DNA of 64,000 bases from Marsupella aquatica (lineage: Eukaryota; Plantae; Marchantiophyta). Made by a program: the position numbers and the translations under genes. The stretch is taken from NCBI GenBank assembly GCA_973895155.1, contig OZ316893.1, forward strand, positions 18,321,836 through 18,385,835. The letters are read 5' to 3'. Below the pieces are notes generated by a model. The model was given only the letters and a program-made list of their open reading frames with translations, was not told the origin of the DNA and ran no database searches. Of the stretch, positions 6,320-64,000 are shown piece after piece. How positions within the stretch are numbered: the stretch's first letter is position 1; the number at the start of each line of letters is the position of its first letter.

Positions 6320-6357
6320 ATTCTTTCCCCTGGCCTCCCGCTATCCGGGAAACCGTT

Positions 6358-22580: not shown

Positions 22581-22587
22581 TGTGAGA

Positions 22588-32200: not shown

Positions 32201-32590
32201 TTTAAAACGCAGGTCATCGCGTAGAGCAGAGTAAGCTGATTCGAGAGATGTAATCGGAGCGGGAATCGGAGCGTTCAGTGAGATTTGAATTTGACGCACT
32301 AAAATGTCTGCAATCATGGCTCCTGCATTGCACTTGAATGGCACTGCGGCAATCGAGACTCGCGGTTTACGTGGTCTAACAGGAAACTAATAAAATCAAG
32401 AATCTTGTCCGTTGCAGCTCTCACTTCACTGGGGAAGTTGTCCAACTTCTTGTCACAAATGCTGTCCTAGAGTTCAATGCGAACATATTTAGTTCGCCAA
32501 CGAGCAACGCGAAGGTTTTGAATTTTAACTCATTTGGCTGAAGGGTCTCCGGATTTGCGTTGTCCAGGTCCCAGCCTGTTATCTTTGACA

Positions 32591-33513: not shown

Positions 33514-33757
33514 GTACTTTATTTGGAGAGCTTAGGCCATGGCGACTTTGCAATTTGTCAAAGTAGCTTATTGCATTTTCTGAATGCCCTTGCTTGTGTA
33601 CCCCGCGAGTTTGGACTGTAAGTAGAATCCAAAGGCTGCATGTAATCCTTAAGAGAGATTGATGTAGTATGCCTAAATTGCATCAAACACTTTTTGGGCA
33701 ATCAAGGAGGAATCCGAGTAACGTCATTAGAGTTAATTTTGGTTATTGTGCTTTCAG

Positions 33758-36756: not shown

Positions 36757-37507
36757 ATAAGAGAGTTGGAGGAAAACAGATTTCCTTTTCATGCCTTGCG
36801 CTCATCTTCAGCTAAAGGGTGGTATGCAGATGTGTGCAGGTGGGCCCATGCTTGGGATTTTCCTGAACATGAATGGCCAACACACCCAACCAAGCTAAGA
36901 GCAAAACTTGAGCAAAAGGCTTTGCACAAACTTTGGCATGAACCTAGCCCACGGCAGCAATACTACATGAGAGATGTGAACCCCATGAAGAAATATCGAG
37001 AACAAGAATACTTATCTAGCACTATCTCAGTACAACTTAGACAACTTATTGCTCAGTATAGACTAAGCTCACACCACCTTGAAGTAGAACAAGGGAGATG
37101 GAAGGATATTGACAAGAAAAAGAGGGTTTGTCAACTATGTGATAGCTCTAGTATAGAGAATGAATATCATGTATTCATTGCTTGCAAGTTTTATGAGGGG
37201 GTTAGGATGGCATCTCAAATCTTGGTGAAAGATTTGTATGCATTGTTTGGTCTGCCCCCTCAGCAACTTGGAAGATATATCTTTGCGGTGGATAGGGAAA
37301 GGAGAATAGGTTTGGAAAATCTTTCAGGGCTCTCTAGGTCCATAGGGCTCTCTAGGTCCATAGTTTCTTTGAGGACATAGTTGTCCTCTTCTGAGCAATC
37401 TCTTTTGGTTGCTCTTTTCTTTGATTGCATTGTACTTTACTTTTTGTGGCAGCTCCTTTGACTTTCATGGTCCCGGAGCTTATAATACATTACCATTACC
37501 ATTACCA
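36757..37507 (+). mobile_element. LINE family A 3' fragment (750 bp) with tail
   Basis: Near-identical to family A; CAGA at both junctions; carries the 18-bp GLSRSI duplication. Confidence 0.95.
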
Positions 37508-43500: not shown

Positions 43501-45363
43501 TGTTATGTGAGCTGCTTCTGCCTTCTTCAGTTCCTGCTTCCACTTCTCCTTCTCCTTGAGGGCTCCAGCCAAGTCTTCTTGAGTCTGGGCTAGTTGCCCT
43601 TGCATGATACTTATTTCATGCTTCCTAACTCGTAGCTCGTCCTGGGCCTGCTTGGCCACCCTTAACTCTCTGGCGTTGGCTTCCACCCTTAGCCGTCGGA
43701 TGACTTCCTCCTTCTTCATCCTCTCCAAGGCTAGTGCATCCATCAACCGGCTTTTCTCCAACATCTCCCTATGGACGAAAGGCCCTGTCTCCAATTCTGC
43801 CCCAAAGATATCAAGGGCGAGTAGCCCGCACATCCTCCCATACTCCAGGGCTCTGGAATGCGCATAGGTGGAGTGGTTAGGAGATGTCGGCATCTCCCAA
43901 CGTGGCCTTACCATCCAAGCCACCCTTCTTATCTCCTCAACCGTGGGCAAGGGCACGGCTTGAACCCTTGCCAGTTGCTGAATGTTCTCCGGCCATCCAC
44001 CGCCTGGCAAGTCCTTCTCCTTGACCAGGGTTGCTTCCTCCAGGTCCATGAATCGCTGTTGCGACTCTTGATCGGCCTGTTGTCTTCCGTCAAACATTGG
44101 TGGAGGTACGTCCGGTGGGGGAGACTCCGGGCTCCCCTGCTGTTGTGGATCCCCCCGCACCACCCTTGGTAGTCTAGGAATAAAACGGCCGCAGGTCCGC
44201 ACTCCTGGTACCAAGCGATCCGACCCGTAACCCAAGTCCTCGTGGTATTCCTCCTCGTATTCCCCGTCCTTCAGGCGTCCTGGTGCCTGTTGGTCCTCTC
44301 TAGGACTAGTCGTAAACCCGGCCTCCTGCCAGGGATTATACAGGCATGCGGCTTGCTCTTCCGGCTTACGTACCTGACTTTCACACTCCTTTTCAGGATT
44401 GGGAACCCTGGGTCCTAGTTCCTCTGAGTCACTAGAGGCTCTTACATACACCCCCGGCTCGTGTTCCGGCCTCCTTCTTTCTTTGGCTCCGGTAAAGGGG
44501 TTTTCCCTTGTCATTTTTCTGGTGCCAGTTGTTGCTGCCACTGGTGCTAGAGCCGCCTTCTCCTTGGTCAGTATATGCAGGAGGCTCTGCATGGCTGGTT
44601 GTTGCATTGGCCCAGCTTCCGGCACCTGTCGGAAGACTTGAGCTATCGTGGGACTGCCTGGCGGGTCGGGCTGCTTTGCTGCCGCTCTCAGGTCTGATTC
44701 CTCTTCTGGCGCTCTAGCCTGTAGGGGAAGAATCGGGGCAAAGATTTGACTTTGGGCGTACCGACATAACAACGGCATGTGATAACCAAGCTGGGATACG
44801 CTTCCTTGGCTAATCACAAGCTGTTCCTCCTTTAATAACTTTCTAAGTTGGTTGAGGAGGTACCCATTGTAATCCCGGCTTGGGTCTGGCCTCTCTACAA
44901 GGTAAACCTGTGCTTTGCCAATCTCCGGCCTCAGCCAGTTGCAATGCATTGTTACCCGGAAGAAATTAATCATTTCTCCTATATGCGGGTTGGTGCAGGT
45001 GCTCCTCAGGAAGCCGTTCTTCGTTGATGGTCCGGGGAACAATCTAAACTCCTTGTCTGGCAAGTTCTTCTGGGTTTCTACCTTAGCTTTGTTGCCCTTG
45101 GGCAAGCCAAACACTTCGGAAATCACGTTGGAGGTGAGATAGAAGTCCCTCCCGTAGATCTTTGTGGAGCTGGTCTCGTGGTCCCATGATCCCACGAATT
45201 CCAATAAGTCCAATTCTGGCACCTCCTTCTTTAGCCACAGCAGTCTTACAAAGCTCTCCAAGCCTGATCCGGCCATGAAGCCCTGGTACTTCTTGGTCTG
45301 CATGGCTGTAAAGCATGCATCCTCCTCTCGTGCAAAATGTAGCTGTACCGCCAGTGGTATCAT
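43501..45363 (-). CDS. Retroelement accessory protein (conserved N-domain, disordered Pro-rich linker, coiled coil), cut at the C-terminus by the LINE
   Basis: ~620 open codons; homologous to 9738-10378 and similar in layout to 5330-6319. Confidence 0.65.
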
Positions 45364-45456
45364 TGCCGCCCATCCCTTCTAGGTGTTGTCTCGGGTAGGG
45401 ACGGCATTGACTGGGTCGACTTCTTGTTCCTTGGGTTCCTCCTCCCTCTGCTTCCC

Positions 45457-45963
45457 CTATTCGGCTGGCTTCTTTGATACTGCCAATCTCGTCCTCTTGG
45501 CCGATGTGTTTTCTTCATTGTTGGTCATCTTCCTCTTCATTTCAGCGGCACCTGAAGATTCTCCCAATACTGTTGCTTTTGTCCATGCCGTTGTGCAACC
45601 CTCCAGGTCCCAATGTTTGTCGTTGCAGTTGTTGATGGCTTGTCGGCTGCCTACGATTTGGTTGTCTTGAATTAGAAGGTTGTCAAGCTCGTCGCCAGTA
45701 GGTGTCCACAGGAATTCAGCCTTGATGAGTTCTCCTCCTAAGAAGGCCGTCTTCTGCAGTTCCCACAGCCGAGCAAGTTCTTCTTGCTCGCGGGCTGCTC
45801 TTTCTGATTCTTCTTCTTCGTAAGTCCCGACGTACTCACTTGCCCGTTCAAACAGGCATCCCCAAAAATGTGCTGCTTGATTGATGTTGCTCATTCCCTT
45901 CTCTGGCCGTGCTTGGTAGCTGCTTATGTCCCTCCCGTGTTCTCCTCCATAAGTCAAAGTCAA
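45457..45963 (-). CDS. Uncharacterised accessory ORF upstream of the 45363 ORF
   Basis: Local similarity to the 10582-11175 ORF and the same gene order. Confidence 0.4.
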   Translation of the reverse strand: MTLTYGGEHGRDISSYQARPEKGMSNINQAAHFWGCLFERASEYVGTYEEEESERAAREQEELARLWELQKTAFLGGELIKAEFLWTPTGDELDNLLIQDNQIVGSRQAINNCNDKHWDLEGCTTAWTKATVLGESSGAAEMKRKMTNNEENTSAKRTRLAVSKKPAE

Positions 45964-46094
45964 ACTCTAATCGTGTTCCCTGCCGTGGCGTCCTTACTTC
46001 TGGCCTCGGCTCGGGTTCCATAGTCACCCTTAATTATTTATATTTTCCTTGTTTTTGTTACTATACTAATGTGTTTTCAGGGTACCCTCCTGGT

Positions 46095-46649: not shown

Positions 46650-47402
46650 TGGTCAACGAGCTGAGATGTCAAAGGTAATTCTCCAATTAAATCACAAAAC
46701 CAGCGGTAAAACAATCCCTGAATCCCAGTAAAGTGGTATAGGCTGTCAAGAAGAGAATGGTAATAATGGTAATGTATTATAAGCTCCGGGACCATGAAAG
46801 TCAAAGGAGCTGCCACAAAAAGTAAAGTACAATGCAATCAAAGAAAAGAGCAACCAAAAGAGAATGAGGTTCTTACTCTGTCACACTGTTCACACCTAGC
46901 TATGATATCCCAAATCTGAGCATGCATCCCCTTCCAATGGTAGTGAGGAGCCAACAAACTATAAGTACGCTTGATTCCAAAATGCCCAAATTCAGAATGT
47001 ACTTTTCTGACCAAGCTAGCCCTATCAGCAATTGGTGGAACCACTCTCTCCCCTTGTGGCAAACAGCGGACTAGGTGATCTCCCTTCCACATGTAACGCT
47101 TAGACCATTGTAGTATCCGATCCCTTTAGTGGTCATGCCTGGTGGGTACTGCCTGTGCTGCAAGAAATTCAGAGTGTCCAAATCCTCCCAGATGTCCACA
47201 ATTGGTTGGTCAACAATGCTGCAACAAAGCAAGGCAAGATAGGCAGAGGCCCCAAGTGTAGAGCTAGGACTAGCATGATCAAAATCTTGCCGTGCATCTG
47301 AAAAATCTGTTGAAATGATCAAAGGACTACGAGACATGGTGTCAGCATTCTGGTGAGTAATTCCAGGTCTATGAATAACTTCAAACTCATATTCTTGCAA
47401 AA
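46650..47402 (-). pseudogene. Ty3/Gypsy pol fragment (RNase H end, HHCC zinc finger, start of integrase)
   Basis: LQEYEFEVIHRPGITHQNADTMSR, HSEFGHFG..CEQC, FYRWFCDLIGELP. Confidence 0.88.
46757..46862 (-). mobile_element. ~105-bp LINE family A 3' fragment inside the Gypsy integrase
   Basis: AAGAGAATG at 46751-46759 and 46858-46866 (TSD overlapping element ends). Confidence 0.9.
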
Positions 47403-50045
47403 TCAAAGTCAAAGTCAAAGTCAAATTCTAAGCTCCACGACGACCCAATGAGTCAAGGGAGCTGTGGCAAAAAAGCCAAATACAAAGCAAAGAAATGAGT
47501 CAAATGCTCATGTGAGGATCTCTACGTCCTCACTAATAACAAATTTAGGACCTTAAGAGTCACTAATGTATAATGCTATCACATCGTTTCCTATCCACTG
47601 CCATGATATACAATCCAAGTTGCTTTGGTGGCAACCTAAATAGATCATGCAGATCAAAAACAAGGATTTGATGTGCTATTCGAATCTCCTCATACCGTCT
47701 ACATGCTATGAATACATGATATTCATTCTCAATGCTGCCACTATCACAGAGTCTACACACCCTATCCTGCCTCCTAATTCTCTTCCATCTACCCTCCTCT
47801 ACCTCCAAGTGATGTGAGCTGAGTCTATATCTAGCAATCACTTGTCTCAACCTCATAGAAATGGGAGCTCTAAGATACTCTTGTTCTTCATACAACATCA
47901 TGGGGTTTACATCCCTCATAAAATACTGTAATCTAGGGCTAGGATCACTCCAAAGTTTTCTAATAGCTTTATCACGCAAGAGTGACCAAAGCTTCTTTGG
48001 TTGAGTATGCCATTCATGCTCAGATAAGTCCCATGATTGGGCCCAGCTACATACATCAGCATACCAACCAAAAGCTCTAGATATGTGAAAGGCTTGCGTA
48101 GGTAGCCTAGAATCATTCAACGCCTCCACTCTCCTAGCATATTGAAGAGTGTGATAGAGAGCTTCAACCTCCAATGGTAGAAGACCTACCTCAGCCAATA
48201 ACAAGGGGTATGGGGTTTGGGTTTTCACTCCAAGCTCCATCTCCAAGAGAAACTTTTGGATGGCCTCTACCTTTTTCCAACAAGATTGAGAAGTAGAAGG
48301 GCCCCATACTTGCACCCCATAAAGAATAACAGGCCTTACCAAGGAATTGAAGAGTTGTTTCTTCAACTTCCAAGCGGAAAGGCTTGCTCCCTTGCACTTC
48401 TGAACCATGCTGTAGAAGGCCTTGTAACCATGAGCCACCCTATGCGTCACACATGTAGCCCAACTCATGCTTCGAGAAAACTCCACCCCAAGATACTTGT
48501 AAGAGGTCACCATCTCCACCTTTTCACCTGCAAAATAGAGAGAAAGCTCTTGCTTTGTACCAAGTACAAGGCACTTGGTCTTCCTCATGTTGACCTGCAT
48601 GTCTGATTGTTTGCAAAAATGCTCTAGGGCTAGAAGATGTTGTTGCAAATCAGATTGGGAGTGAGCTAGAAGCACCACATCATCTGCAAATATAAGAAGT
48701 TGGATGGCCAGTGTTCCCAACTGAGAACCTACGCCTCCCATCTCCTCTAGCAAATCATGTAGTTGGTCAATGAAGACCCCAAAGAGAGTTGGAGATAGTG
48801 GGCAGCCTTGGATCACACCAAGTGTGCTAGGAACCTCCTCATAGCTACTACCAGAGAATCTAATCATTACCTTTTGATACAATTGTGCAATAGCTATTCT
48901 CATCTCAAGAGGAACTTCGAGACTAATCAACCGCTCCCAAAGCTTGTGTCTACAAACCCTATCAAATGCTTTGGAGAAGTCTACAAACAAGCAAAATAGA
49001 GGTAGCTTGAGTCTTTTAGCCCTCTCCTCTAACACTCTAAGGCAAAGCATGTGATCTAGAGTACTAAAACCTGCCCTAAAACCAGCTTGTGATGATGCTC
49101 TTTTCATGTGTTTTTCAACCCAAGAACTAAGTCTAGCTTCTAGTAGTCCTCCTAAAACTTTAGCAAAGATACTAGCTATCATGATAGTCCTATAGTTGCT
49201 CACCTCATTCTTAGAGCCTCCCTTGTGAATAGGTACCAATCTCCTTGTACTCCAATCTGGAGGTAAGCCACCTTGGACCACTTGATTCAAACATGCAGTG
49301 AGTGCTGATACCAACGAAGATCCACCCCATTGTAGGAGCTCCACTGTGAACCCTTGCAAATCTGCAGCCTTGCCCTTTTGTATTCTAGATAGTTGAGTTT
49401 GCACCTCTATATCTGAGAATTGAATAGCTTCCCCAATCTCCAAAGGCATGGAAGTAGCTTCGGGATAGAAGTAGAGAGACTTCACATAGCTTACCAATGT
49501 TTGTTGCTCCAAGCAAGTATCTTCTTTTTTCACCAGAAATCTCTTCCAAAAGCCTTTAGGATTCTCTTGAAGTTCTTGGGAAAGCACTTGTTGATGTTGC
49601 CTCAAGAAGCATCTCTTCTTGTGCTTCACAAAGTTACTATACATTCTCAATGCAAGTAACTTTACATCTTCAGCTTGTGCCATGGCCCTCCTTCTAGCTT
49701 TCTACACACTCTGCATCAAACCATGCTTTCATGGTTTGTTTTGTGGACAATGATCTTTTAGAGAATACAGTAGTAACTGCTTTTGCTATCAGTTGTGATA
49801 GTTCCAACACATTGGAATGTGTTGGTAGTAGGGCCTCAATCTCCCCTCTAAATACATCAACCTTATCATGATCCAGAAAGAATCTAGAAATATGTCTTTT
49901 CCTTGTTATCCCCTCTCTAAAACTTGTGGCCAAATCTAGATGAAATAACAAGGGTAGATGTGAAGACTCTGGTTGTTGATCAAGTATTCTAAAATCAATC
50001 ACTCTACTAGCTGAAGATGGTGATGCTAGGAGATAATCAATGGTG
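47403..50045 (-). mobile_element. LINE family B, 5'-truncated within APE, (TTTGAC)n tail
   Basis: 706-aa RT ORF 47563-49683; APE end STIDYLL..SSHLPL; frameshift ~49700. Confidence 0.95.
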
Positions 50046-50378
50046 CTGACCATCAGCAAGAACGACTTGATCAAACGAGAACCAATCCGCAAATTTGCGT
50101 GGAGTCTGTCGGTCGCCAGTCCACGGAATATTTCTCTCCCCAAGACTAATCGCCTCGTCGTAAGGAAGAGAATTATGGTTCCGAAAAGTCGATGTCTCGG
50201 TCTCAGTGTCGACATGAACTGATTCTAAGGAGCTGAAGTGGCTCTCCATCGGTCAAATGGTAATGGTAATGTATTATAAGCTCCGGGACCATGAAAGTCA
50301 AAGGAGCTGCCACAAAAAGTAAAGTACAATGCAATCAAAGAAAAGAGCAACCAAAAGAGATTGCTCAGAAGAGGACAA

Positions 50379-53300
50379 CTATGTCCTCAAAGAAACTATG
50401 GACCTAGAGAGCCCTATGGACCTAGAGAGCCCTGAAAGATTTTCCAAACCTATTCTCCTTTCCCTATCCACCGCAAAGATATATCTTCCAAGTTGTTGAG
50501 GGGGCAGACCAAACAATGCATACAAATCTTTCACCAAGATTTGAGATGCCATCCTAACCCCCTCATAAAACTTGCAAGCAATGAATACATGATATTCATT
50601 CTCTATACTAGAGCTATCACATAGTTGACAAACCCTCTTTTTCCTGTCAATATCCTTCCATCTCCCTTGTTCTACTTCAAGGTGGTGTGAGCTTAGTCTA
50701 TACTGAGCAATAAGTTGTCTAAGTTGTACTGAGATAGTGCTAGATAAGTATTCTTGTTCTCGATATTTCTTCATGGGGTTCACATCTCTCATGTAGTATT
50801 GCTGCCGTGGGCTAGGTTCATGCCAAAGTTTGTGCAAAGCCTTTTGCTCAAGTTTTGCTCTTAGCTTGGTTGGGTGTGTTGGCCATTCATGTTCAGGAAA
50901 ATCCCAAGCATGGGCCCACCTGCACACATCTGCATACCACCCTTTAGCTGAAGATGAGCGCAAGGCATGAAAAGGAAATCTGTTTTCCTCCAACTCTCTT
51001 ACACGCATGATGTATTTGAGTGTGTGGAAGAGTGCCTCCACCTCCAAAGGAAACAAGCCTGCCTCTGCAAGTGTAAGTGCATATGGGGTTTGTGACTTGA
51101 TCCCAAGCTCCATCTCAAGAAATAGCTTTTGCAGCCCCTCAATCTGTTGCCACCCAGATTTAGACACACCTGCTCCCCAAATTGGTGCTCCATAAAGAAT
51201 GACTGGTTTCACCAAAGCTCCAAAGAGATGTTTCCTTAACCTCCAAGTGTGTAGACCAGCTCTTTTGCATTTGTTCATGAATGCATAAAAAGCTCTGTAC
51301 CCATTGGCAGCCCTAGATTTTACACATGAGGCCCAACTCAAGTTTTGAGAGAACTCCACCCCAAGGTATTTGTAGGTCCTCACAAATTCCACCAGATTCC
51401 CTTGGAAGTAGAGCTCTGGATTTTGTCGTGTGCCAATGCCCAAACACTTGGTCTTCTTGAGGTTGACTACCATCCCTGTTGCTTGACAAAACTCCTCCAA
51501 GGCATTGAGATGTCTTTGCAAAGCTTCTTGAGCATGAGCAAGTAGGACCACATCATCTGCAAATATAAGAAGTTGGAGGACAAACCTACCCAATTGAGTG
51601 CCAACTCCACCATGCTCCTCCAAAATGTTGTGTAGCTGATCAATGAAGATGCCAAAGAGAGTTGGTGAGAGAGGACAACCTTGGATCACCCCAAGAGTGC
51701 TCCAGATTTCTTCAGAGGTTTCCTTTGAAAGTTTGATGCGCACTTCTTGGTACAATTTAGAAACAGCCAACCTGAGCTCTTCAGGCACTTCCAACTCCAC
51801 CATCCTATCCCAAAGCTTGGATCGGGAAACTTTGTCAAAGGTCTTGGAGAAGTCCACAAACAAGCAAAATAATGGTTTATGTGGAGATTTGGCCTTTTCA
51901 CACAACACCCTCAAGCAGAGAATGTGATCCATAGTGCTGAATTCTCTCCTAAAACCTGCTTGTGAAGGTGCCCTTTTCATCTCACTCTCCAACCAAGAGC
52001 TTAATCTGGCTTCAAGTAGTCCTCCCAAAACTTTAGCAAAAGTATTGCCTACCATGATGGTTCTGTAGTTGTGCACATCATCCTTGTTGCCTGCCTTGAA
52101 GATAGGCACCACTCTTTTGGTCATCCAAGCTTTAGGTAAACCTAAAGCCATTGCTTGATTCAGCTCATGCACCAAGTTTGTTAGTAAAGAGGGTCCTCCC
52201 CACAAAAGAAGCTCCAAGTTCAGGCCCAACAGATCTTTAGCTTTCCCATGTTGCATGTGGGAAAGATGCACCTTCACCTCCCTCTCTGTAAACTGAATGG
52301 TGTCCCCAAGGGGCAAAGGCATGCCACTAGCATCTGGAAAGAAATGCAAGGATGTGACATAGGTTACCAGGTCCTGGTGATCCAAGGGGGGAATAGTCTT
52401 GCCTGATTGCATTCTCTCCCAAAAACGTTTTGGATGTTTGATGAACTCCTCACATAGTGATTGTTGATGACTCTTCAAGAAGCACCTCTTCTTGTGTTTG
52501 ATGAAGTTCTTGTACATAGTGAATGCCAAAAGTCTCTTTTCCCCTGAATGTGATCTTGCTTGCATCCTTGCTCTAGCACAATCCTCGTCAAACCAAGCCT
52601 TCATGTTTTGCTTTCTAGGGGGTTTGGTGGAGAAAGTAGAGGCTGCTGCTTGTGCTATGACTTCTGAGAGCTCAATCTGATCATCCAGGGTATGGAGAAG
52701 ATGTTCAAAGTTGGCTTTGAAGATGACTTCTCTATCAGGGTCTAGAAACAGAGGTTTGGGTACTGGCTTTCTATGCACTTTGTTTGGGATTGTGGTCAGG
52801 TCAAGATGGAACAACAAAGGCAAGTGTGAAGACTCTGGTTGTTGATCAAGTATTTGAAAGTCAACCACTCTAGTGGCAGAGGTAGGTGAGGCAAGAAGGT
52901 AATCAATGGTACTACATCCTTGTTTAGATCTAAAAGTGTAACCAGATGATTGGGGAAATCTCTCAAGCCCATTCAATATTCTTAGATTACAAGAAGCTCC
53001 CAAATGCAAAAAGTGACGTGTCATGTCATTTGTTCTGGTGTCAAGAGCCTCTCTCACCCAAGGTATCTCTTCACTACATGATGACCAAGGTAAAGTTCCT
53101 AAGTCCTCACTTTCAGTAAATTGTTCATTAGATACCCTGGCATTAAAGTCCCCCACTATCCATGTCTCCCCTAGTGGTGATATATCATGAATGACTTGGA
53201 TTAATCTATGAAATGGATAATGTGCATCAGCAATTCCCATCTTATAGACATTCATATTAAGGGGAGCAAAGTAGGTGACAATCAGAAATGATGGAGTACC

Positions 53301-53600
53301 TCTGGTATGAAGTCTCACCACCATGAACTGTTTGCTGGGATCTTCATGTTCAATAGAGGTGATGTGTTGAAGTTGATTCTTGGTGTAGACAGCAATGCCT
53401 CCAAACCCTCTTCCCCGTGTGGTCTTCTTCTCATTGAAGATGGATTGTATGCAAGTAAAGCCTTTAATGCTAGGTAGAGCATTTCCCTCATATTCCCAAG
53501 TCTCCGTGAAAAGCAAGATGTCAAAATTCTCAAACAAAGGTTCCCCTCCAATTGCTGTTTCTATGGAAAGTCCTGAAACATTCCATGCCATGACTCTCAA
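50379..53600 (-). CDS. LINE ORF2: AP endonuclease + reverse transcriptase + C-terminal Cys/His finger, 1073 aa
   Basis: AWNV, FTETW, VGDFNAR, IDYLL, SSHLP; FVDFSKTFD, QGCPLSP, FADD, YKYLG; start codon uncertain (TTG 53600 or ATG 53591). Confidence 0.97.
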   Translation of the reverse strand: MRVMAWNVSGLSIETAIGGEPLFENFDILLFTETWEYEGNALPSIKGFTCIQSIFNEKKTTRGRGFGGIAVYTKNQLQHITSIEHEDPSKQFMVVRLHTRGTPSFLIVTYFAPLNMNVYKMGIADAHYPFHRLIQVIHDISPLGETWIVGDFNARVSNEQFTESEDLGTLPWSSCSEEIPWVREALDTRTNDMTRHFLHLGASCNLRILNGLERFPQSSGYTFRSKQGCSTIDYLLASPTSATRVVDFQILDQQPESSHLPLLFHLDLTTIPNKVHRKPVPKPLFLDPDREVIFKANFEHLLHTLDDQIELSEVIAQAAASTFSTKPPRKQNMKAWFDEDCARARMQARSHSGEKRLLAFTMYKNFIKHKKRCFLKSHQQSLCEEFIKHPKRFWERMQSGKTIPPLDHQDLVTYVTSLHFFPDASGMPLPLGDTIQFTEREVKVHLSHMQHGKAKDLLGLNLELLLWGGPSLLTNLVHELNQAMALGLPKAWMTKRVVPIFKAGNKDDVHNYRTIMVGNTFAKVLGGLLEARLSSWLESEMKRAPSQAGFRREFSTMDHILCLRVLCEKAKSPHKPLFCLFVDFSKTFDKVSRSKLWDRMVELEVPEELRLAVSKLYQEVRIKLSKETSEEIWSTLGVIQGCPLSPTLFGIFIDQLHNILEEHGGVGTQLGRFVLQLLIFADDVVLLAHAQEALQRHLNALEEFCQATGMVVNLKKTKCLGIGTRQNPELYFQGNLVEFVRTYKYLGVEFSQNLSWASCVKSRAANGYRAFYAFMNKCKRAGLHTWRLRKHLFGALVKPVILYGAPIWGAGVSKSGWQQIEGLQKLFLEMELGIKSQTPYALTLAEAGLFPLEVEALFHTLKYIMRVRELEENRFPFHALRSSSAKGWYADVCRWAHAWDFPEHEWPTHPTKLRAKLEQKALHKLWHEPSPRQQYYMRDVNPMKKYREQEYLSSTISVQLRQLIAQYRLSSHHLEVEQGRWKDIDRKKRVCQLCDSSSIENEYHVFIACKFYEGVRMASQILVKDLYALFGLPPQQLGRYIFAVDRERRIGLENLSGLSRSIGLSRSIVSLRT

Positions 53601-53612
53601 GGTCCCGATCCA

Positions 53613-54383
53613 TCATTTAGAAACAACTCTCTTCTTATTGGTAACAACAGCTTGTCCATTGCGCAAGTAGGTTACCAATCCTTGGTCTTTGGCTACCCTC
53701 ACCTTCTCAAGCTCAATTTTCCTTGCTTGGACTTGTGTGGGAGTCAGATCATCATCCAACCAAATCCTTAGCCCTTTAAGCATGCTCCTGTTAGCCATCA
53801 CTCTAGCTTTCTCGGATTCAGCTGCAAACTTCACCAAGATTGGACGTGGAAGGTCCCCCTTCTTTTGCCCAATCCTATATGCTTGCAAAATGATAGGGTC
53901 ATGCACTTTCATCTGAGATTGGAAGAATGAAATTGCTACCTTCTTGGTGTCTTCCTTCTCCTCCTCAACAAGGCCTGATATTTTGCAGTTGCTGACTCTT
54001 GCATGCTGGTTCTTGTGTTCTTCTTCTAGTGCTCTCCTCTCCTCCTCCTTGGCTTGGACAAATTCCATATGTGATTGTTTTGCAGCCTGTGCAAAGGTTT
54101 TGAGCTTCTCCTCAATCTCCCCTACAGCCTCATGTATCACTGATTTCTCTGGGCACATACTCTTCTCCATGTCTCCAAAACACGATGCAAGCAATGAGAG
54201 TTGCTTACCATTCTCCTGAGTTTGAGATCGAAGATCACTAATCAACCTCTTTTGCTTGACATTCTCATTCTTTAGCTCCGTCACCTCCTTGCTGAGCGTG
54301 GTAATCTCAATTGCGGAGTTTTCAGCCACAACTAAGATTTTCTCAAGCAAAGCCTTGAGATGGGCAATCTCCTCCGTTGCCAT
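53613..54383 (-). CDS. LINE ORF1: coiled coil + RRM + CTD (L1/Transposase_22-like), 256 aa
   Basis: ATG at 54383 (MATEE); NCKISGLVEE, AYRIG..PRPILVKF, IWLDDDLT. Confidence 0.9.
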   Translation of the reverse strand: MATEEIAHLKALLEKILVVAENSAIEITTLSKEVTELKNENVKQKRLISDLRSQTQENGKQLSLLASCFGDMEKSMCPEKSVIHEAVGEIEEKLKTFAQAAKQSHMEFVQAKEEERRALEEEHKNQHARVSNCKISGLVEEEKEDTKKVAISFFQSQMKVHDPIILQAYRIGQKKGDLPRPILVKFAAESEKARVMANRSMLKGLRIWLDDDLTPTQVQARKIELEKVRVAKDQGLVTYLRNGQAVVTNKKRVVSK

Positions 54384-54390
54384 CACAAAG

Positions 54391-54975
54391 CTTTGCCAGT
54401 GATACACTCTCGCTATTTGCAACACTCTGCCAAAATCTGAGCTCAAACCCCAGCCGATTGCCCTTCCAACTCGAAGTGAAATTTCGCCCCAAGCTCAGAA
54501 TCCCGAAACTGGACACGTAGCAGATCGTGCATGCTAAAGTGCATACCAAACGATGTCGGTTGTAGCTCTAACTTTGCCAGTGATACATTCTCGCTGTTTC
54601 CAATGCTCTGGCAAAGTCTGAGCTTAAACCGTAGCCAATTTCCCTTCCAACTCGAAGTGAAATTTTGCCCCAAGCTCAGAATTGTGAAACTGGAGACGTA
54701 ACAGATCGTGCATGCTAAAGTGCATATCAAACAATGTCGGTTGCAGCTCTAACTTTGCCAGTGATACATTCTTGCTGTTTCCAATGCTCTGGCAAAATCT
54801 GAGCTCAAATCACAGCCGATTGCCCTTCCAACTCGAAGTGAAATTTCACCCCGAGCTCAGAATCGCGAAACTAGAGACGTAGCAGATTGCGCATGCTAAA
54901 GTGCATACCAAACGATGTCGGTTGCAGCTCTAACTTTGCCAGTGATACATTCTCGCTGTTTCCAATGCTCTGGCA
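54391..54975 (-). repeat. 181-bp tandem monomers (~3.2 copies) in the LINE 5'UTR
   Basis: ctttgccagtgataca recurs at 54391, 54572, 54753 and 54934. Confidence 0.92.
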
Positions 54976-55034
54976 GATTGAAGAAGGCAAGCATCTCGTC
55001 CAACGACATTGGTTCCTTCCTCTCCATGTGGTTG

Positions 55035-55245
55035 CACCCAGCTCGACAACGTCCACACGCAGCTCGACAACGTCCGCACCTTGCCTTAAGGTCCGCACCC
55101 AGCTTGACAACGTCCACACGCAGCTTGACAACATCCGCACCTTGCCTTAAGGTCTGCACCCAGCTCGACAACGTTCCCACCTTGCCTTAAAGTCCGCAAC
55201 CAGATCGACAATGCCCGCACCCTGGTCGACAACGTCCGCACCTTT
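55035..55245. repeat. Minisatellite of ~20-bp units (cagctcgacaacgtccgcacc / ttgccttaaggtccgcacc)
   Basis: About ten interleaved degenerate units of two types. Confidence 0.85.
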
Positions 55246-55771
55246 ATCGACCTAGTGACTCCAAAAGGTTGACATAGTGACTACCAAAGGACGATGATCG
55301 GTGGACACCCATAACATGCAAGCTTCAACAAGTAGAGGACCGTTGAGTAAACAGTCCAATCGCGACACGATATTTTGAAATAGACCCGACTGAATTATGT
55401 AACGACAATATACGAATGGCGACAGGATGGTGACAGAACGCATGAACGATATTATGATGTAAAGGTTCGAGGAAAACATGCACTTTGGGGAGCGCCCGAC
55501 GCTACTAAAGGAAGAGACCAATTTAAAACCTTTTATACAAGAAATACATGTATCTCGATAACAGCGCCCGGCGCTACTGAAGACAACAAGTGGTTTTTAG
55601 AATTTTATTATGAGCATATGAAATGAAATACATGTCTTTTCATAACAGCGCCCGGCGCTAGTAAAAGCTGGAAAAGAAATATACATCAATTATCAGTTTA
55701 TGATTCAGAGCTCTGTGATCTTTCGGTAGAGATTGCTTTGTCATCGACATACTTGCTCTTAGAAACGTCGT

Positions 55772-58700
55772 CTACATACGGGTTTCTAACAAAAAATTTG
55801 TCAACTCCTCTTCAAAGGTGGAGACCTTTGTTTTCCCAGCACAGAGTCCTTTGACTATCCTCCTTTCTCGCAGCGTTCTCAGCGTAAGACGGCAAAACAA
55901 ATGGTTTCTCCGCTGTATCCATTTCAAAACGTAACTTTTCTTCTGAGTGGAAGCGCTTTCTGGTATTCCATTTGGACCTGGGTAGATAACCAAGTAAGAC
56001 AACCGATTGAAAGATACAATCAATAGCACAAAATGCATGAAGGAGCTGGAAAAGAGAAAGAAGCTTACGAGTTTCAGAACATTACTCGAAAGAGTCATTG
56101 CTATCACTCTCGCCAGCAGATTGCTCCTTACCCCCCCTGAGTTGTCTCCCCATCCACTTCATCTACGGTCCCCCCACTTGACTCATCATCGGAGTCAAAA
56201 TTAAGTATAGACCGGAGCTTGTCCCTCTTTTTCTTTTCCGGTGGTTGAATTGGGGGAGGCAAGGTTTCTACTTCCTTAGACGAGAGTAGATTTAAGAACA
56301 CCTTGGAACCAGTTTCAACAAAATCCTTCCGATTCTCCAGTCCAATTACAAACCTCCCATAATAGTCTCCAGCTACAAAAGAGCTACCCAAACCAACTGT
56401 CCAATCTATGAAAATATCCTGAGGCTGAGTGATGAGCTCTATCACAGACTGCATGAATCCAACCAACAAACGGGCATTCCCTGTGAATTCCATCTCAGGT
56501 GTTGGATCTATGTTGAGAGTGGGAAGCCCAATTAAATTAGTGATGGAGGGATCTTCTGTAACAGACCGAGGTCTAAACCTCGAGTCTTTGGGTACTTTCC
56601 CTTTCTGAGATACTCGGCAAAAGACGTCTAGCCTAAGCGTGAATATCTGCGTGATAAACCAAGAATGATATGTCATTCCATGCATTCATACACATTCTTG
56701 AGTGTAAAAAACAGAGATCACGACTTGGAATTTACCTGTCGGTCAGTCTTTGGCGCGTATATAGGAACTGACATAACAACATTGTGTGTGGAGATGCAAT
56801 GAAACTTCTTTGATTCCTGACATGCGGATATAACCTAAGAGATAGGATCGTACTCCCCATTATGCAAAACTGCTAGCATTCCGTCATCTGATAAAAATGG
56901 GTCCATTCCACGAAAGAATGATGTTGCCAGTGTGTGGTCGGGTATTCCATTTCGGGACTTTTCTGTCTAGCAGCGATGGTTTCAGACCCGTAGGAAGGTA
57001 AATGAATCCTGCGTATACTCCAAAGGATCTTTCCTTCCCCCCACGGACAATGCCTTGTCTCGATATCCCAACTTTATGAGGTCCTTTGCCCATTTCTCTA
57101 CACCATTTACCCAGTCAGGCTTCTCCTCTTTGTTGAACGTTGTGTCATAGAATTTTGAGATGCTAGACTCAACCATGCAATGCCTTGAAAGAGTGTTTTT
57201 GAAGTCACCAACTTCACGTTGAACACCCGTTGCAGCCGCACTTTCCCGAGCGGAGGAGGATCCACCTTCAATTGCCCTTTTTTGCTTCTTTCTAGTACTG
57301 ACCGCATCTACTGGAGCAATTGACTTCCCTTTCTTGATGGGTGTAAGTGGGTCAGATGGAGGCCCTGTATTGGCTTCAGATGCCTCTGGGGTGGCATCTA
57401 TCTTTGTATCACCACTGCCGATGGCGTCTGACTTTCTCCCTACTCAAATGGAAGCCGATGTTAGATTTTGAGCGTATGGAAAACGCAAAGTATACTAACG
57501 CCCGGCGCTGGCCAAACTTTCTCGAAGAGATGGAAGCAAATATATATATTTCTGGAACAAATGAGACAAATGCAATCTAACATATATTGAATGGCATAGC
57601 AGCGCCAGGCGCTAACCAAAGAACTACAAATTATACTTACGTTTTTTCCCGTACCTTGTTGATTCACTGGGGACAGCAGTATCAGCTTTCCCTTTCGCGC
57701 GAGGCTTTTGGCTTTGGTCAACGTGAACAACTGTGGTCTCACAGTTCATTTGCAATTTTATTGTGGACTTATCTACATCGTCCGCTAGTCCCTGCTTCAT
57801 GTCAGAAACAATATTGACTGGTATCTAGGACTTAGAGAGCTTGTGGAAAGCATCCTTTTCTCGGTGATCAAGGGCCAGTCCCATCTGTCTGTATCTAGGT
57901 ACCATGGACAGTGGGTTCTCTCCCATTCACTTAAAGGTCTCACTGGGAAATTCCCTCCGCAGGGTACATAGAGTACAAATCAGATAAATTGTCACCTTCT
58001 GATATTACTGTCCACTTCTGAAAAGCGGCGGGATATGCCCAGAAGTAATCAGGTCTAGTTACTTCCATGTGGATATAAAATTGGTAGAGGTACCTTTTTG
58101 CTCGCTTCTGGTTCTTCAAAGAGTAGTCCTCTTTGTTCGGATACTTCGAAGGCCACATTGTATTAAAAAACTTACTCTTGATTCACATGCCCAGGCTTGC
58201 AAGCGATTCTCGGGAATGATTTGTTGGACCTCTCTCAAAGCACACTGTAACATCCCCACTGCAATCCCCTCTACATTGTTCCACATAATCCAGGTATGAC
58301 ACCACTGTTTTACTGGATCATCATTGACGCTATTCGGATGGAAGAATTGCCTTCAGAGCTCCGGATTGCAATGGACGACAAGCAAAGTACTTTTGAGCTT
58401 GGGTTTGAGTGTGGAAACAGCAGTAAAAAGCCTGGCTCGGTCCATCGTACACAAGACGGTATCAAGTTTCTTCTCTCTCTTATTTCTATATGTCACAGCA
58501 TACATTTCTGCGCATGTAGACAGAAAGTCCTCAAATTATGGACTCAACAAGGGAGTGATTTTTGATGTTTTCACTGCCCACTCCTTGGTGGCCTCCTTCA
58601 TCATTACGGCATGCCTTGTGGAAACCTCCTCGGCTGACCAAGGGGTACCTAGGGCCGCAGCGGACTCCATGTCAAGCTTGAACTGGTTAGAATATGATTT

Positions 58701-59746
58701 AATCTTATTCTCACATAGAATATAAACAAGAGCCTCTTGAGGCATCTTCTTTGTGTACCAGGATCCTTTCCGTGTCTTCAGCCTGATCTGCTCAAACTTC
58801 TTATAATTGGCAGGGTCGATGAGCTTACTATAGTACTCCAGGTCGTGAATCAAAATCCTCTTGATTCGATCTGCGTCAAGGATCCATGACGGTTTGACCA
58901 CGTCTTGTCCAAGCCTGAAGGAAAAGAAAGCAATTAGAAAAACATTTAAGCAGCGCCGGGCGCTCGTAAAACAATTTCTCTCCAACATATGCTATAAAGA
59001 CAAACTTACTGGTTCACGGTGTGCATCGCCTCTTCAATTTCAATCAGTGAACCCTTGTCCCCATTGAAGACAATACAGAGCACTCGTGAGTGGTATTTCT
59101 GGTTTTCTGGATTCTCCTTAGTGACAAGCGTCCAGGAGTACAACCGATGGTTCTCATCAAAAACTGAGAACATATTATCCTTCAGAACGAGAAAATTGGG
59201 GTCTGTCGCACATTCTTCCTTGAACTTTTTGTTTTCGGATGTCCATATTGGATCCCAAGTATCACGAATTTCCTGTGTGCAAGTGAGCGTCACACCCTCA
59301 GCGTCCGTCGGCTGAACATAAAACCTCATTCCTATCGAAAAATTGTATCCCATACTATGAAAAGAGTCTTTCAACTTGTCAATGGAGGAGCTATCTTTCT
59401 GCAAAGTGCGGACGACCTCCATGTGCACCAACCGACACAGCGGAATCCTAGGAGGCTCTTTGTTAAACCCTCAGAAATCCTTCCCAAAGAACATGACATG
59501 TTTTGAAATAAGGTCGGTCTCCGAGAATGAGACATCTCCGATTGCAAATGTGTCAACATTCTCCATCTTTTTTCGCGTCGGCTTCGGAAACGAATTACTT
59601 GAGATGGGAACAAGCGATGCGCTTGACCTTGTCACTTGACGTGTATACACCAAACCTGAAAATGAAGACTTAGAAAACTCGCAATAGCCACGATCACGAT
59701 CCCCAACTACACTATACCCCCTCGACGAGGAGGGGACTACATCCAT
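55772..59746 (-). pseudogene. Multi-exon ParB/Srx-like + beta-class amino-DNA-methyltransferase-like gene, decayed
   Basis: IPLCRLVHMEVVRTLQ..KLKDSF..GY..FYV and FSVFDENHRLYSW (ParB DGNHR-like); FIYLPTG, FLSDDGMLAVLH and ELITQPQDIFIDWTVGLGSSFVAGDYYGRFVIGLE (MTase motifs); GT-AG introns 58915-59009 and 56647-56735; stop at 59471 and frameshifts; the 3' boundary is uncertain. Confidence 0.7.
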
Positions 59747-59828
59747 CGTCTCCCGCGATGAGTATTGTACGAACGGTCATACACTACAATTCTCACGATC
59801 GAATACTGAATCTCCATACCAAATTAAT

Positions 59829-59854
59829 ATGGTAATGGTAATGGTAATGGTAAT
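59829..59854 (-). repeat. Isolated (CATTAC)4 tract, probable tail-only family A insertion
   Basis: atggtaatggtaatggtaatggtaat with TAATA at both junctions and no LINE body. Confidence 0.65.
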
Positions 59855-60719
59855 AGTTGATGGAGTATTATACCCGATTGATCAGTGCTATCTCCCTCCA
59901 TGTAATCTATTTAAGAGACGTTACGATGAAATTGGGTATTACTTATCGTTAAAACAAAGCGACAATCTAAGAACTGTGACAGATATTAATGTAAAATCCG
60001 CTAAACTGTTTTCGTGAAGATCACGCTAACCGTAGTTACCGTTAAATATTACCGTTGACCAGACTACTAAAACTTGGTAATGCATTGCTAGCATCGGGCG
60101 CTAGTCAAGCTGTACCCACATTGGTCATAAAGTTTAATGTTTTCAATAGATAGCGCCAGGCGCTACCCATTCCGTGGTCTATTCACGGTTCTGTTTTTGG
60201 TCCCAGTTTATGTGAAATTTTTGAAAATGAAGAACTTTAGGACGTAGGAAGTTTAATTTTGTTCACATTTGGTCCTTAAATATGGTGTACCAATACTAGC
60301 GCCCGACGCTAGTACATATATCACTGTATGGTGCTTAAATTTGGACAATATTGCATTTTAGATACAAAAAAGTAGACTTATTGGTGTCCACTGTAATGCT
60401 AGCGCCCGACGCTAGTCTGGTGTGTGACTGAATTCTGACCTTATAAATCCTGGAATTTTTGGTAGCGCCAGGCGCTGCTGAAATCATGTGAATTATCCTA
60501 GCCTATCCTAGCCTATATGTGTTCATTTTGACACAATAAATATCCCTGACACCCGCACTTACCGGGGCAAAAAGGACAAACTCTACATTTATGATTTCAA
60601 CGGACACAATTCTATGTCGTATTCAAACAACTTTTATAACGGTTAGTCATCTTCACGCATGAGTATAAGCATTCCATTTGGGAGGAATTTGCTTTGTTGA
60701 TTCCTTTATTTTCTCCACA

Positions 60720-61634
60720 ATGTCTCACTCAATTGTAATTACACGTGCTTGTACTGGAGACGTCGTCAAGATCCCCATGCAAGTTTCTGATGCTTACAAG
60801 CAAGTTAGTGAAACCTACCTTTGCGGGAGATTTGATTTGAGGATGAATGATATTGAGTCCATTGTTCCGCAGGAATCGACGAGTGGAGAACTTCAACGGG
60901 CTGCGGCATTTGATGTAGATGAGGGAGTACGCTTTTGGCATATTAATGTCGGGGTTAGTTACACGCTTAATGTCAGACGTGTCGCTCCGGAACCAGCAGT
61001 CGGGAACATTCCTGTTGTTGTTGTTGACATATCTGATAGTGAAGATGGTGATGTTGCACCCACTCCTCCATCGCAGGACAAAGTTCCGGTTTCCGCTTTT
61101 GTTAAGGATGAGCCGGTGGCTACCTCCGGAGGTTGTCATAAAGTCTACCGGAGGAGTGCGATTGATGCCTTACTCAAGGCCATGAGACATAGTGAACTGT
61201 CAAGATTTATCTCGGCAGGGGACTTCCGGCATGAGCAAGTTCCTTGTTTGCCAGACAAGTACAACAGAAATGTTGTATTTGAATTGCCTCCCATTGAGGG
61301 AATGCTCTCCAAGGGATCTAGACTTCGTGACATGGACCGCGCCAAAGATTGTTACATTTGGACCCAAATTTTTCCAACAACTGCGAACGTGCATCCAAAG
61401 AAACATTGGGAATTTGGTAAGGTTACGTGTACCGGGTTCATCGAGTGCAGGAACAAGTCTTGTGAGTACTTTCAGCGAAAGAAAAGATGCAATGCAAAGG
61501 CCTGGCATGGTGCTCCTAAACTCAGTGGCCAGCACGTGGTGGGTTCGTTGATTGAAGAGGGTGGTGTAGTCTATCACTATTGTGAGCAGATTCCTTTATG
61601 TGTGAAGTCTTGCCCTGCTCGCTTGTTTTATATG
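60720..61634 (+). CDS. Putative DNA transposase N-terminus with GCM/WRKY-like zinc finger (Mutator-related?), interrupted by a LINE
   Basis: LPDKYNRNVVFELPP..MDRAKDCYIW..CTGFIECRNKSCEYF..N..W..YC..P.CVKSCPARLFY; the stop is supplied by the LINE tail; catalytic domain not in window. Confidence 0.55.
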
Positions 61635-64000
61635 TAATGGTAATGGTAATGGTAATGGTAATGTATTATAAGCTCCGGGACCATGAAAGTCAAAGGAGCT
61701 GCCACAAAAAGTAAAGTACAATGCAATCAAAGAAAAGAGCAACCAAAAGAGATTGCTCAGAAGAGGACAACTATGTCCTCAAAGAAACTATGGACCTAGA
61801 GAGCCCTATGGACCTAGAGAGCCCTGAAAGATTTTCCAAACCTATTCTCCTTTCCCTATCCACCGCAAAGATATATCTTCCAAGTTGTTGAGGGGGCAGA
61901 CCAAACAATGCATACAAATCTTTCACCAAGATTTGAGATGCCATCCTAACCCCCTCATAAAACTTGCAAGCAATGAATACATGATATTCATTCTCTATAC
62001 TAGAGCTATCACATAGTTGACAAACCCTCTTTTTCCTGTCAATATCCTTCCATCTCCCTTGTTCTACTTCAAGGTGGTGTGAGCTTAGTCTATACTGAGC
62101 AATAAGTTGTCTAAGTTGTACTGAGATAGTGCTAGATAAGTATTCTTGTTCTCGATATTTCTTCATGGGGTTCACATCTCTCATGTAGTATTGCTGCCGT
62201 GGGCTAGGTTCATGCCAAAGTTTGTGCAAAGCCTTTTGCTCAAGTTTTGCTCTTAGCTTGGTTGGGTGTGTTGGCCATTCATGTTCAGGAAAATCCCAAG
62301 CATGGGCCCACCTGCACACATCTGCATACCACCCTTTAGCTGAAGATGAGCGCAAGGCATGAAAAGGAAATCTGTTTTCCTCCAACTCTCTTACACGCAT
62401 GATGTATTTGAGTGTGTGGAAGAGTGCCTCCACCTCCAAAGGAAACAAGCCTGCCTCTGCAAGTGTAAGTGCATATGGGGTTTGTGACTTGATCCCAAGC
62501 TCCATCTCAAGAAATAGCTTTTGCAGCCCCTCAATCTGTTGCCACCCAGATTTAGACACACCTGCTCCCCAAATTGGTGCTCCATAAAGAATGACTGGTT
62601 TCACCAAAGCTCCAAAGAGATGTTTCCTTAACCTCCAAGTGTGTAGACCAGCTCTTTTGCATTTGTTCATGAATGCATAAAAAGCTCTGTACCCATTGGC
62701 AGCCCTAGATTTTACACATGAGGCCCAACTCAAGTTTTGAGAGAACTCCACCCCAAGGTATTTGTAGGTCCTCACAAATTCCACCAGATTCCCTTGGAAG
62801 TAGAGCTCTGGATTTTGTCGTGTGCCAATGCCCAAACACTTGGTCTTCTTGAGGTTGACTACCATCCCTGTTGCTTGACAAAACTCCTCCAAGGCATTGA
62901 GATGTCTTTGCAAAGCTTCTTGAGCATGAGCAAGTAGGACCACATCATCTGCAAATATAAGAAGTTGGAGGACAAACCTACCCAATTGAGTGCCAACTCC
63001 ACCATGCTCCTCCAAAATGTTGTGTAGCTGATCAATGAAGATGCCAAAGAGAGTTGGTGAGAGAGGACAACCTTGGATCACCCCAAGAGTGCTCCAGATT
63101 TCTTCAGAGGTTTCCTTTGAAAGTTTGATGCGCACTTCTTGGTACAATTTAGAAACAGCCAACCTGAGCTCTTCAGGCACTTCCAACTCCACCATCCTAT
63201 CCCAAAGCTTGGATCGGGAAACTTTGTCAAAGGCCTTGGAGAAGTCCACAAACAAGCAAAATAATGGTTTATGTGGAGATTTGGCCTTTTCACACAACAC
63301 CCTCAAGCAGAGAATGTGATCCATAGTGCTGAATTCTCTCCTAAAACCTGCTTGTGAAGGTGCCCTTTTCATCTCACTCTCCAACCAAGAGCTTAATCTG
63401 GCTTCAAGTAGTCCTCCCAAAACTTTAGCAAAAGTATTGCCTACCATGATGGTTCTGTAGTTGTGCACATCGTCCTTGTTGCCTGCCTTGAAGATAGGCA
63501 CCACTCTTCTGGTCATCCAAGCTTTAGGTAAACCTAAAGCCATTGCTTGATTCAGCTCATGCACCAAGTTTGTTAGTAAAGAGGGTCCTCCCCACAAAAG
63601 AAGCTCCAAGTTCAGGCCCAACAGATCTTTAGCTTTCCCATGTTGCATGTGGGAAAGATGCACCTTCACCTCCCTCTCTGTAAACTGAATGGTGTCCCCA
63701 AGGGGCAAAGGCATGCCACTAGCATCTGGAAAGAAATGCAAGGATGTGACATAGGTTACCAGGTCCTGGTGATCCAAGGGGGGAGTAGTCTTGCCTGATT
63801 GCATTCTCTCCCAAAAACGTTTTGGATGTTTGATGAACTCCTCACATAGTGATTGTTGATGACTCTTCAAGAAGCACCTCTTCTTGTGTTTGATGAAGTT
63901 CTTGTACATAGTGAATGCCAAAAGTCTCTTTTCCCCTGAATGTGATCTTGCTTGCATCCTTGCTCTAGCACAATCCTCGTCAAACCAAGCCTTCATGTTT
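61635..64000 (-). mobile_element. LINE family A copy running off the window edge
   Basis: 741-aa open RT frame, (CATTAC)n tail, GLSRSI duplication. Confidence 0.96.

Follow-up and report, generated by a model that had tools for sequence, protein, structure and literature searches.

We describe a fused gene of ParB and amino-methyltransferase type that lies in a 64,000-nucleotide stretch of the genome of Marsupella aquatica (contig OZ316893.1; this whole stretch is referred to as the window, and all coordinates are window positions). The window consists of eukaryotic DNA rich in long interspersed nuclear elements (LINEs). The gene runs on the minus strand from 59746 to 55700 and was modelled in the window as five exons of about 1190 codons, in which a ParB-type N-terminal domain is followed by about 600 residues that are helical and of low complexity and then by a methyltransferase-like domain; about 970 bp upstream, in a head-to-head layout, a cysteine-rich open reading frame (ORF) is found on the plus strand (Table 1). 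All four introns have GT-AG borders, and their phases match the reading frames. Several stops and frameshifts disrupt the coding sequence, and the window copy is a pseudogene.

An earlier reading of this DNA (the sequence-only reading) had described a single spliced fusion on the minus strand, already decayed and head-to-head with a zinc-finger ORF. Each of these points was borne out, the fusion also by a Riccia sorocarpa protein of 1207 amino acids (P0154) that carries all three parts in the order ParB, helical, methylase and aligns with window exons 1 and 2. The motifs quoted in that reading lie where it had placed them: VFDENHRLYSW in the minus-strand frame 59009-59470, FIYLPTG at 57006, FLSDDGMLAVLH in exon 3, and ITQPQDIFIDWTVGLGSS..GRFVIGLE in frame 56131-56685; the Cys-rich ORF likewise sits in an open plus-strand frame (60669-61637). 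Two further Riccia proteins cover the remainder of the gene: P0155 aligns to exon 4, and P0023 aligns to exons 3 and 5, sharing with exon 5 the motifs LPxYA..AAR and RNPYVDD (pairwise E, 1e-5). UniRef labels P0152, P0154, and P0155 of R. sorocarpa as "Trimethylguanosine synthase"; the evidence points instead to a ParB plus amino-methyltransferase-like transposon protein.

The ParB-type and methyltransferase-like domains

An AlphaFold model of the ParB-type domain, built with an alignment of 41 family members, reached a predicted local distance difference test (pLDDT) score of 94.5. With this model, the top 10 Foldseek matches were all ParB, Noc, or KorB proteins (E, 0.008 to 0.025), and all eight VIA matches at a Z score of at least 5 belonged to the ParB/Srx superfamily. 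By these model comparisons, the exon 1 domain has the ParB/Srx fold, as the sequence-only reading had proposed for its core. The DGNHR motif, of which VFDENHRLYSW carries a variant, is near-invariant in the family alignment (G106 in 39, N107 in 41, and R109 in 37 of the 41 members), and further polar residues are conserved at R21 (36/41) and N153 (39/41). These five residues may match those of the ParB nucleotide pocket, which presumably combines an early Arg, a GxxR-type motif, and a late Asn. At position 59154, Gly is found in 82 to 100% of the contig depth in four sequencing runs; therefore, the Glu of DENHR is private to the window copy. The core also carries a helical insert of 30 to 40 residues relative to bacterial ParB.

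A full HMMER search with exon 1 returned 186 proteins at an E value of ≤0.001, the best of which were 50 to 58% identical. A Pfam TRAPP match on exon 1 (E, 4e-4; below the cut-off; one of the 41 members) was rejected in favour of the fold result. In the ESM Atlas, the clusters nearest to 59009-59470 were eukaryotic, namely, fungal proteins that carry DUF3723 (0.96) and a cluster from cnidarians, followed by ParB_N (0.92), in a cluster set in which 11% of the members bear ParB_N. DUF3723 is described, in the available part of that report, as a conserved cargo of Starship elements (bioRxiv 2021.12.13.472469). The Starship connection is a lead only: the N terminus of these DUF3723-bearing proteins may have the ParB/Srx fold, and our literature search found no paper pairing DUF3723 with ParB. 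The sequence-only reading had envisaged that a plant transposon took up a prokaryote-type module; a new uptake of that kind finds no support here, the nearest feature-level neighbours of the ParB domain being eukaryotic and accessory genes of the same kind being already in print for algal transposons. In an unrooted tree of the ParB domain (66 sequences), the window grouped with 11 sequences and, more widely, with 10 Riccia sequences (99/94), and four Adiantum sequences lay apart from this group; the tree was not taken as evidence on host or transfer.

Profile searches, which the sequence-only reading had suggested for both domains, gave a divided answer. None of the 41 family members matched ParB_N (PF02195) at an E value of ≤0.1, and N6_N4_Mtase (PF01555) matched the window exon at an E value of 0.027 and a Riccia homologue at 9.4e-6, the latter narrowly below the cut-off (26.2 bits versus 26.7). 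The methyltransferase exon of the window scored 0.95 to N6_N4_Mtase clusters in the ESM Atlas, and its only three Protein Data Bank matches at an E value of ≤10 were DpnA-type and CcrM methylases. HHalign comparison of a nine-sequence plant alignment (window included, with X at its breaks) with two phage methylases gave a probability of 95.8% over 196 columns, with motif IV first and motif I last; the reversed control gave 0.0%. On the evidence of this alignment, the domain order, motif IV before motif I, is that of the beta-class amino-methyltransferases, in agreement with the sequence-only reading. A word-based homologue search with this exon for longer proteins found none among 1173 candidates.

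Motif IV aligns to the DLPY of the Synechococcus phage ACG-2014f enzyme; the window has Y-L-P-T at this place, the Riccia proteins have D-L/M-P-T/S, and those of Adiantum have D-V-P-F and D-F-P-I. The canonical form, (D/N/S)-P-P-(Y/F/W), is absent from the window and partly kept in Riccia and Adiantum. The contigs on 56250-57080 include a sister contig of depth 577 that is identical to the window across the motif, and none of the 40 of 47 rows listed for four runs gave a change of at least 60% at the motif IV codon. The Tyr is thus no lesion peculiar to the window copy; subfamilies in the minority might deviate. Motif I reads DWTVGLG in the window, DWTVGSG in 78 to 100% of the sister depth, and DFAGGWG in Riccia. 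Exonic differences common to the copies comprised 20 synonymous and 10 replacement changes, and those private to the window copy comprised 1 and 8, respectively (Fisher P = 0.006; 39 exonic rows after one intronic row was dropped, from 40 of 47 rows listed, with the 78% class cut chosen after the data had been seen). At the level of sequence comparison, this pattern shows purifying selection on the methyltransferase-like exons; the synonymous excess among the shared differences indicates that the domain has been kept by selection despite its altered motif.

Copies, palindromes, and the partner ORF

Homologue clusters were examined for 30 of 150 matches and contained 16 R. sorocarpa gene models from seven different contigs, together with three models from Adiantum nelumboides and two from Adiantum capillus-veneris; many of the Riccia homologues are partial models. 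Of the 66 homologues that reach the end of exon 1, 40 stop there, which suggests a shared intron. Five public sequencing runs contain part of the stretch, and all four runs that were compared cover all 30 bins of 54300-62300. No RNA data set was listed as containing it, which carries no information on expression. An 831-bp methyltransferase stretch was found in 186 to 248 contigs per run, with identities from >99% to <90%, and up to 14 (X1) and 23 (X4) distinct contigs were counted per site; contig depth is not a copy number. These contigs show, at the sequence level, that the fused gene belongs to a multicopy repeat family with many diverged copies, which includes the non-coding spacer. At 58355, 57827, and 56837, where the window copy has stops, the frame stays open in sister contigs, which also have inserted bases at four frameshifts (55947, 57052, 57869, and 57947). 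Continuous cover, short bridging contigs at 60033-60680 and 60547-60841, and two joints of equal depth point to linkage of both ORFs in sister copies. Outside plants, scans of viral contigs and prokaryote genomes found no related locus, and a metagenome scan gave 16 loci that were discarded, all being chance matches to TEDPSITN in large unrelated proteins.

The best clue to the mechanism is a set of 11 palindromes that the sequence-only reading did not mention. The 15-bp sequence TAGCGCC-N-GGCGCTA occurs at 11 sites from 55490 to 60477 at ≤2 mismatches, with no site in the remaining 57.5 kb of the window and none in 100 Markov controls at the same threshold; its 13-bp core occurs at 10 sites versus 0.05 expected. 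All 11 sites lie in non-coding DNA, which makes up 32% of the element: three in the 3' flank, two in intron 2, one in intron 1, and five in the spacer, with none in introns 3 and 4. Seven of the sites are internal or intronic and not terminal, and one more lies in the spacer. In the available account of VANDAL21, the VANC21 motifs are located in introns, intergenic DNA, and terminal non-coding regions (PMC5735166), and the placement seen here looks like theirs by analogy.

The spacer also contains (ATGGTA)4 at 59829-59854, identical to the tail repeat of the young LINEs described below; it may be a preferred target or a remnant, of minimal size, of a LINE.

The partner ORF is cut by a young LINE. 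Two homologues (71% and 61% identical), both fragments from contigs of 1.0 to 1.3 kb, carry the zinc-finger ORF beyond this break through an HxH pair. The ligand pattern in P0156 and P0157, C..CxxxxC..CxxC..C..HxH, fits the GCM type of the WRKY-GCM1 finger, with a zinc ribbon between the first two ligands; the label given to the partner ORF assumes the ligand spacing of GCM1. A word-based homologue search with the zinc-finger ORF for longer proteins found none among 136 candidates. Fingers of the WRKY-GCM1 superfamily, including a GCM type with a zinc-ribbon insert, have been described as the domains through which transposases of Mutator-like elements (MULEs) bind DNA in the part of that study available (PMC1702500). 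From its ligand spacing, the partner ORF probably encodes a transposase, and the element is likely a cut-and-paste, Mutator-like DNA transposon, present here as a decayed copy. The sequence-only reading had called the gene transposon-borne: the multicopy repeat family agrees with this, and the transposase identity is what we infer, its catalytic part having been cut off by the LINE.

Table 1. Features of the fused gene, its partner ORF, and their flanks (window positions)
Feature	Position	Strand	Description
Exon 1	59010..59746	-	Low-complexity N terminus and ParB/Srx-fold domain (modelled); start codon inferred
Exon 1 lesion	59471-59473	-	Single in-frame stop
Intron 1	58915..59009	-	95 nt, GT-AG, phase 2; one palindrome inside
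Exon 2	57641..58914	-	Middle part, helical, with homology to Riccia proteins; disrupted by several frameshifts and stops
Intron 2	57440..57640	-	201 nt, GT-AG; two palindromes inside
Exon 3	56736..57439	-	Linker, then the N-terminal half of the methyltransferase-like domain, with F-I-Y-L-P-T-G at the place of motif IV
Exon 3 lesions	56736..57439	-	One stop, two frameshifts
Intron 3	56647..56735	-	GT-AG
Exon 4	56069..56646	-	C-terminal half of methyltransferase-like domain with S-adenosylmethionine (SAM)-binding motif I (DWTVGLG), then acidic tail
Intron 4	55978..56068	-	GT-AG
Exon 5	55700..55977	-	C-terminal tail; one stop, one frameshift
Three palindromes, 3' flank	55490..55660	.	At 55490, 55562, and 55646
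Five palindromes, spacer of divergent genes	60089..60477	.	At 60089, 60151, 60297, 60400, and 60463
Tandem repeats of 21 to 22 bp	55034..55290	.	Near presumed left end; part of either the element or the adjacent LINE
Cys/His-rich ORF, 5' part	60720..61636	+	GCM-type ligand spacing; cut by LINE; likely N terminus of a Mutator-like transposase
Young LINE	61637..64000	-	Interrupts zinc-finger ORF, where its (GTAATG)n 3' tail abuts the break; does not belong to the element

The LINE at the break belongs to a very young family, with further copies at 15768-17795, 22516-26206, 36758-37507, and 41792-43500 and, to the left of the element, at 50256-54975 (minus strand). Its copies are 98 to 100% identical and have an open ORF2 of 1077 amino acids, 181-bp 5' monomer repeats, a (GTAATG)n tail, and extreme CpG loss (observed/expected ratio, 0.09); the left copy showed no flanking target duplication. 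A second LINE family (47400-50255, minus strand), about 67% identical to the first and with a (TCAAAG)n tail, is broken in its endonuclease region exactly at the start of the tail of the first. Elsewhere in the window, a 337-codon frame at 32522-33532 (plus strand) has a coiled-coil region and, at its end, the beginning of a cytidine/deoxycytidylate deaminase domain (PF00383; E, 5e-8), and is possibly an exon of a host gene, and long frames at 43465-45966 and 5333-6340 (both minus strand) have no Pfam match and are probably other repeat-borne genes.

Candidate functions of the fused protein

ParB dimers read a two-fold symmetric site at parS. We postulate, with a probability of about 0.5, that the locus is a decayed Mutator-like element whose accessory protein, combining the ParB and methyltransferase folds, is predicted to bind the 11 palindromes of its own element and likely shields or organises that element rather than methylating it. 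Under this proposal, the protein would recognise the palindromes as a dimer, the ParB-type domain would then spread or bridge along the element, and the methyltransferase fold would be used as a SAM- and DNA-binding module; as a result, the element would stay active against host methylation or be organised for transposition. The parts of the proposal differ in strength. From its motifs, the methyltransferase-like domain of this family has probably lost catalysis but still binds SAM and DNA. By analogy with ParB at parS, we lean slightly towards dimerisation on the palindrome and spreading from it. A benefit in the form of protection from host cytosine methylation, as for VANC of VANDAL elements, is suggested more tentatively.

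Several observations weigh against this proposal. Foldseek gave no match at an E value of ≤0.001 with the ParB-type model, and the VIA scores were modest (best match, KorB; Z, 7.5; root mean square deviation, 2.7; 92 aligned residues). Sulfiredoxin, SerK, and SbnI have the same fold by VIA, so that the fold alone does not establish the function. No helix-turn-helix was identified in the ParB-type protein, for which the structure model covers the N-terminal domain. The partner ORF obtained no profile or fold support as either GCM or MULE (model pLDDT, 33; fold searches uninformative), and the GCM-like zinc finger of the sequence-only reading stands on its Cys/His spacing. Neither a DDE domain nor terminal repeats nor a target duplication came to light, with the right end beyond the window and the ORF cut at 61636, and no listed contig bridges both the fused gene and the Cys-rich ORF. 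The private C-to-T changes of the window copy number 12 at CG, 7 at CHG, and 8 at CHH sites, of which 510, 477, and 1940, respectively, were available (39 of about 1376 rows); this enrichment at CG and CHG indicates that host methylation probably acted on the copy at some time. CpG content was considered as evidence of protection (observed/expected ratio, 0.78 in the element versus 0.09 in the LINE) and set aside as not specific, since other parts of the window match it.

The main alternative, which we regard as unlikely, is that the palindromes are sites of the transposase zinc finger, in which case the ParB-methylase-like protein would assist transposition or be general cargo, without sequence-specific self-binding. 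It is textbook knowledge that transposases bind short repeats in their own elements, and the DNA-binding role of WRKY-GCM1 fingers noted above, together with the lack of a helix-turn-helix in the ParB-type protein, would suit this explanation. The distribution of the sites can be read both ways: five sit immediately upstream of the zinc-finger ORF, and three are close to the presumed left end; however, the three others are intronic in the ParB gene and remote from any end. The two-fold symmetry of the site suits a dimeric ParB-type binder, and in red-algal Plavaka elements, which have a different transposase, inverted-repeat arrays adjoin the ParB-like gene PAG3, as far as that account is available (bioRxiv 2025.02.11.637652).

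The next alternative, which goes back to the sequence-only reading, is an active N4-cytosine/N6-adenine (N4C/N6A) methylase with which the element would mark itself; CCNGG and GCGC, both contained in the palindrome, are examples of where this might happen. The beta-class order, the alignment of motif IV to the DLPY of a phage enzyme, the G-S-G of motif I in most of the sister depth, the purifying selection, and the D-V-P-F kept in an Adiantum homologue are all compatible with such an enzyme, and bacterial-origin N4-methylcytosine enzymes are reported to work in Marchantia and bdelloids in the accessible parts of two studies (bioRxiv 2021.02.12.428880; PMC8885841). However, the acid position of motif IV is Tyr and the aromatic position is Thr, in the depth-577 contig as well as in the window, and the Riccia copies that reach motif IV likewise are without the aromatic residue, which makes a self-marking methylase doubtful and, in our judgement, improbable. 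That the locus is not a transposon at all, being an expanded host gene family or a segmental repeat beside a zinc-finger gene by chance, could be argued from the lack of a catalytic domain, ends, and target duplication and from the spliceosomal introns and purifying selection, but it is very improbable given that the spacer and flanks are repeated together with the genes, that the Riccia homologues are scattered and often partial, and that the same gene type is carried by algal DNA transposons (PMC12477816, in the part available).

Known systems and implications

The closest precedent for an accessory protein of this kind is Sola1-1_Ec32 of Ectocarpus, in which, according to the available text, a 1104-amino-acid ParB-like plus N4C/N6A methylase gene lies opposite the transposase and self-binding and self-modification are proposed (PMC12477816). 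Both systems have the two domain types in one protein of about 1100 to 1200 amino acids on the strand opposite the transposase or, here, a likely transposase fragment. They differ in host (brown alga versus land plant) and in partner (Sola versus a GCM-type finger not identified as Sola), the likeness being one of description; furthermore, the catalytic motif is lost in this family, and dispersed palindromes are not described for Sola1-1_Ec32 in that text. The Plavaka elements of Bostrychia and other red algae, as presented in the accessible part of the preprint cited above, carry accessory genes PAG2 and PAG3 with a ParB-like domain, a PF01555 methylase, and adjacent inverted repeats proposed as binding sites. 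Unlike the gene described here, their ParB is fused to a 2-oxoglutarate oxygenase and their methylase to SET, in separate genes, and their repeats form tandem arrays, whereas single palindromes are scattered over the introns and spacer here.

VANDAL elements and their VANC proteins in Arabidopsis share with this element the Mutator class (probable here), an accessory gene, and a short motif accumulated in intronic, intergenic, and terminal non-coding DNA. In the part of that work available, the VANC motifs are 8 to 9 bp long and arrayed in one orientation, in contrast to the 15-bp palindrome, and anti-silencing was shown for VANC, whereas here it is proposed by analogy (PMC5735166); moreover, unlike VANC, the accessory protein has no Pfam family that we could see except the methylase domain. 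Phage and prophage PF01555 methylases resemble the C-terminal domain in fold, motif order, and the DLPY-type neighbourhood of motif IV, and bacterial ParB/parS systems resemble the N-terminal domain in its ParB/Srx fold. Unlike either, the gene has four spliceosomal introns, an eroded motif IV, and no ParA. MpDN4MT1 of Marchantia and N4CMT of bdelloids also place a bacterial-type beta-class amino-methyltransferase domain in a eukaryote; in the accessible descriptions, they belong to the host, keep a functional catalytic motif (TSPPY in MpDN4MT1), and have no ParB domain, unlike the high-copy repeat found here. Other eukaryotic ParB-linked methylases have been catalogued, with few in land plants, in the part of that survey available (PMC4738411).

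The design is therefore already known from algae, and the land-plant version is a variant of a recently described kind, real at the level of the fold. No report of this gene from land plants emerged from our literature search, which did not extend to the algal papers' supplements or to Iyer et al. 2011; these may bear on the point, and the latter may cover plants. The study by Iyer et al. is reportedly cited in the Ectocarpus paper for green algae. The present analysis adds the distribution in land plants, the GCM-type partner, the finding that a methylase domain whose catalytic motif is eroded has been under selection, and a candidate binding site that is sharply defined. In the available parts of the literature found, the algal ParB-methylase accessory genes have so far been noted without functional tests. 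The sharp consensus site, the intact-looking homologues in a sequenced liverwort, and the natural variants with and without the catalytic residues make the question of self-binding, protection, or marking testable.

If the proposed shielding or organising role is correct, anti-silencing by transposons would extend beyond VANDAL and VANC, and the protein could provide a sequence-targeted chromatin tool. A bolder version, which we consider a long shot, is that transposons of seed-free land plants carry a working parS/ParB system, in which a nucleotide-gated clamp would load at the palindromes in the introns and spacer of its own element, slide, and drag along a domain of methyltransferase fold, by which cytosine methylation of the host would be blocked or rewritten. 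If true, this would place a bacterial-style CTP clamp in the plant nucleus as a second, independent invention of anti-silencing beside VANC, and the DUF3723 proteins of fungal Starships might be its distant kin.

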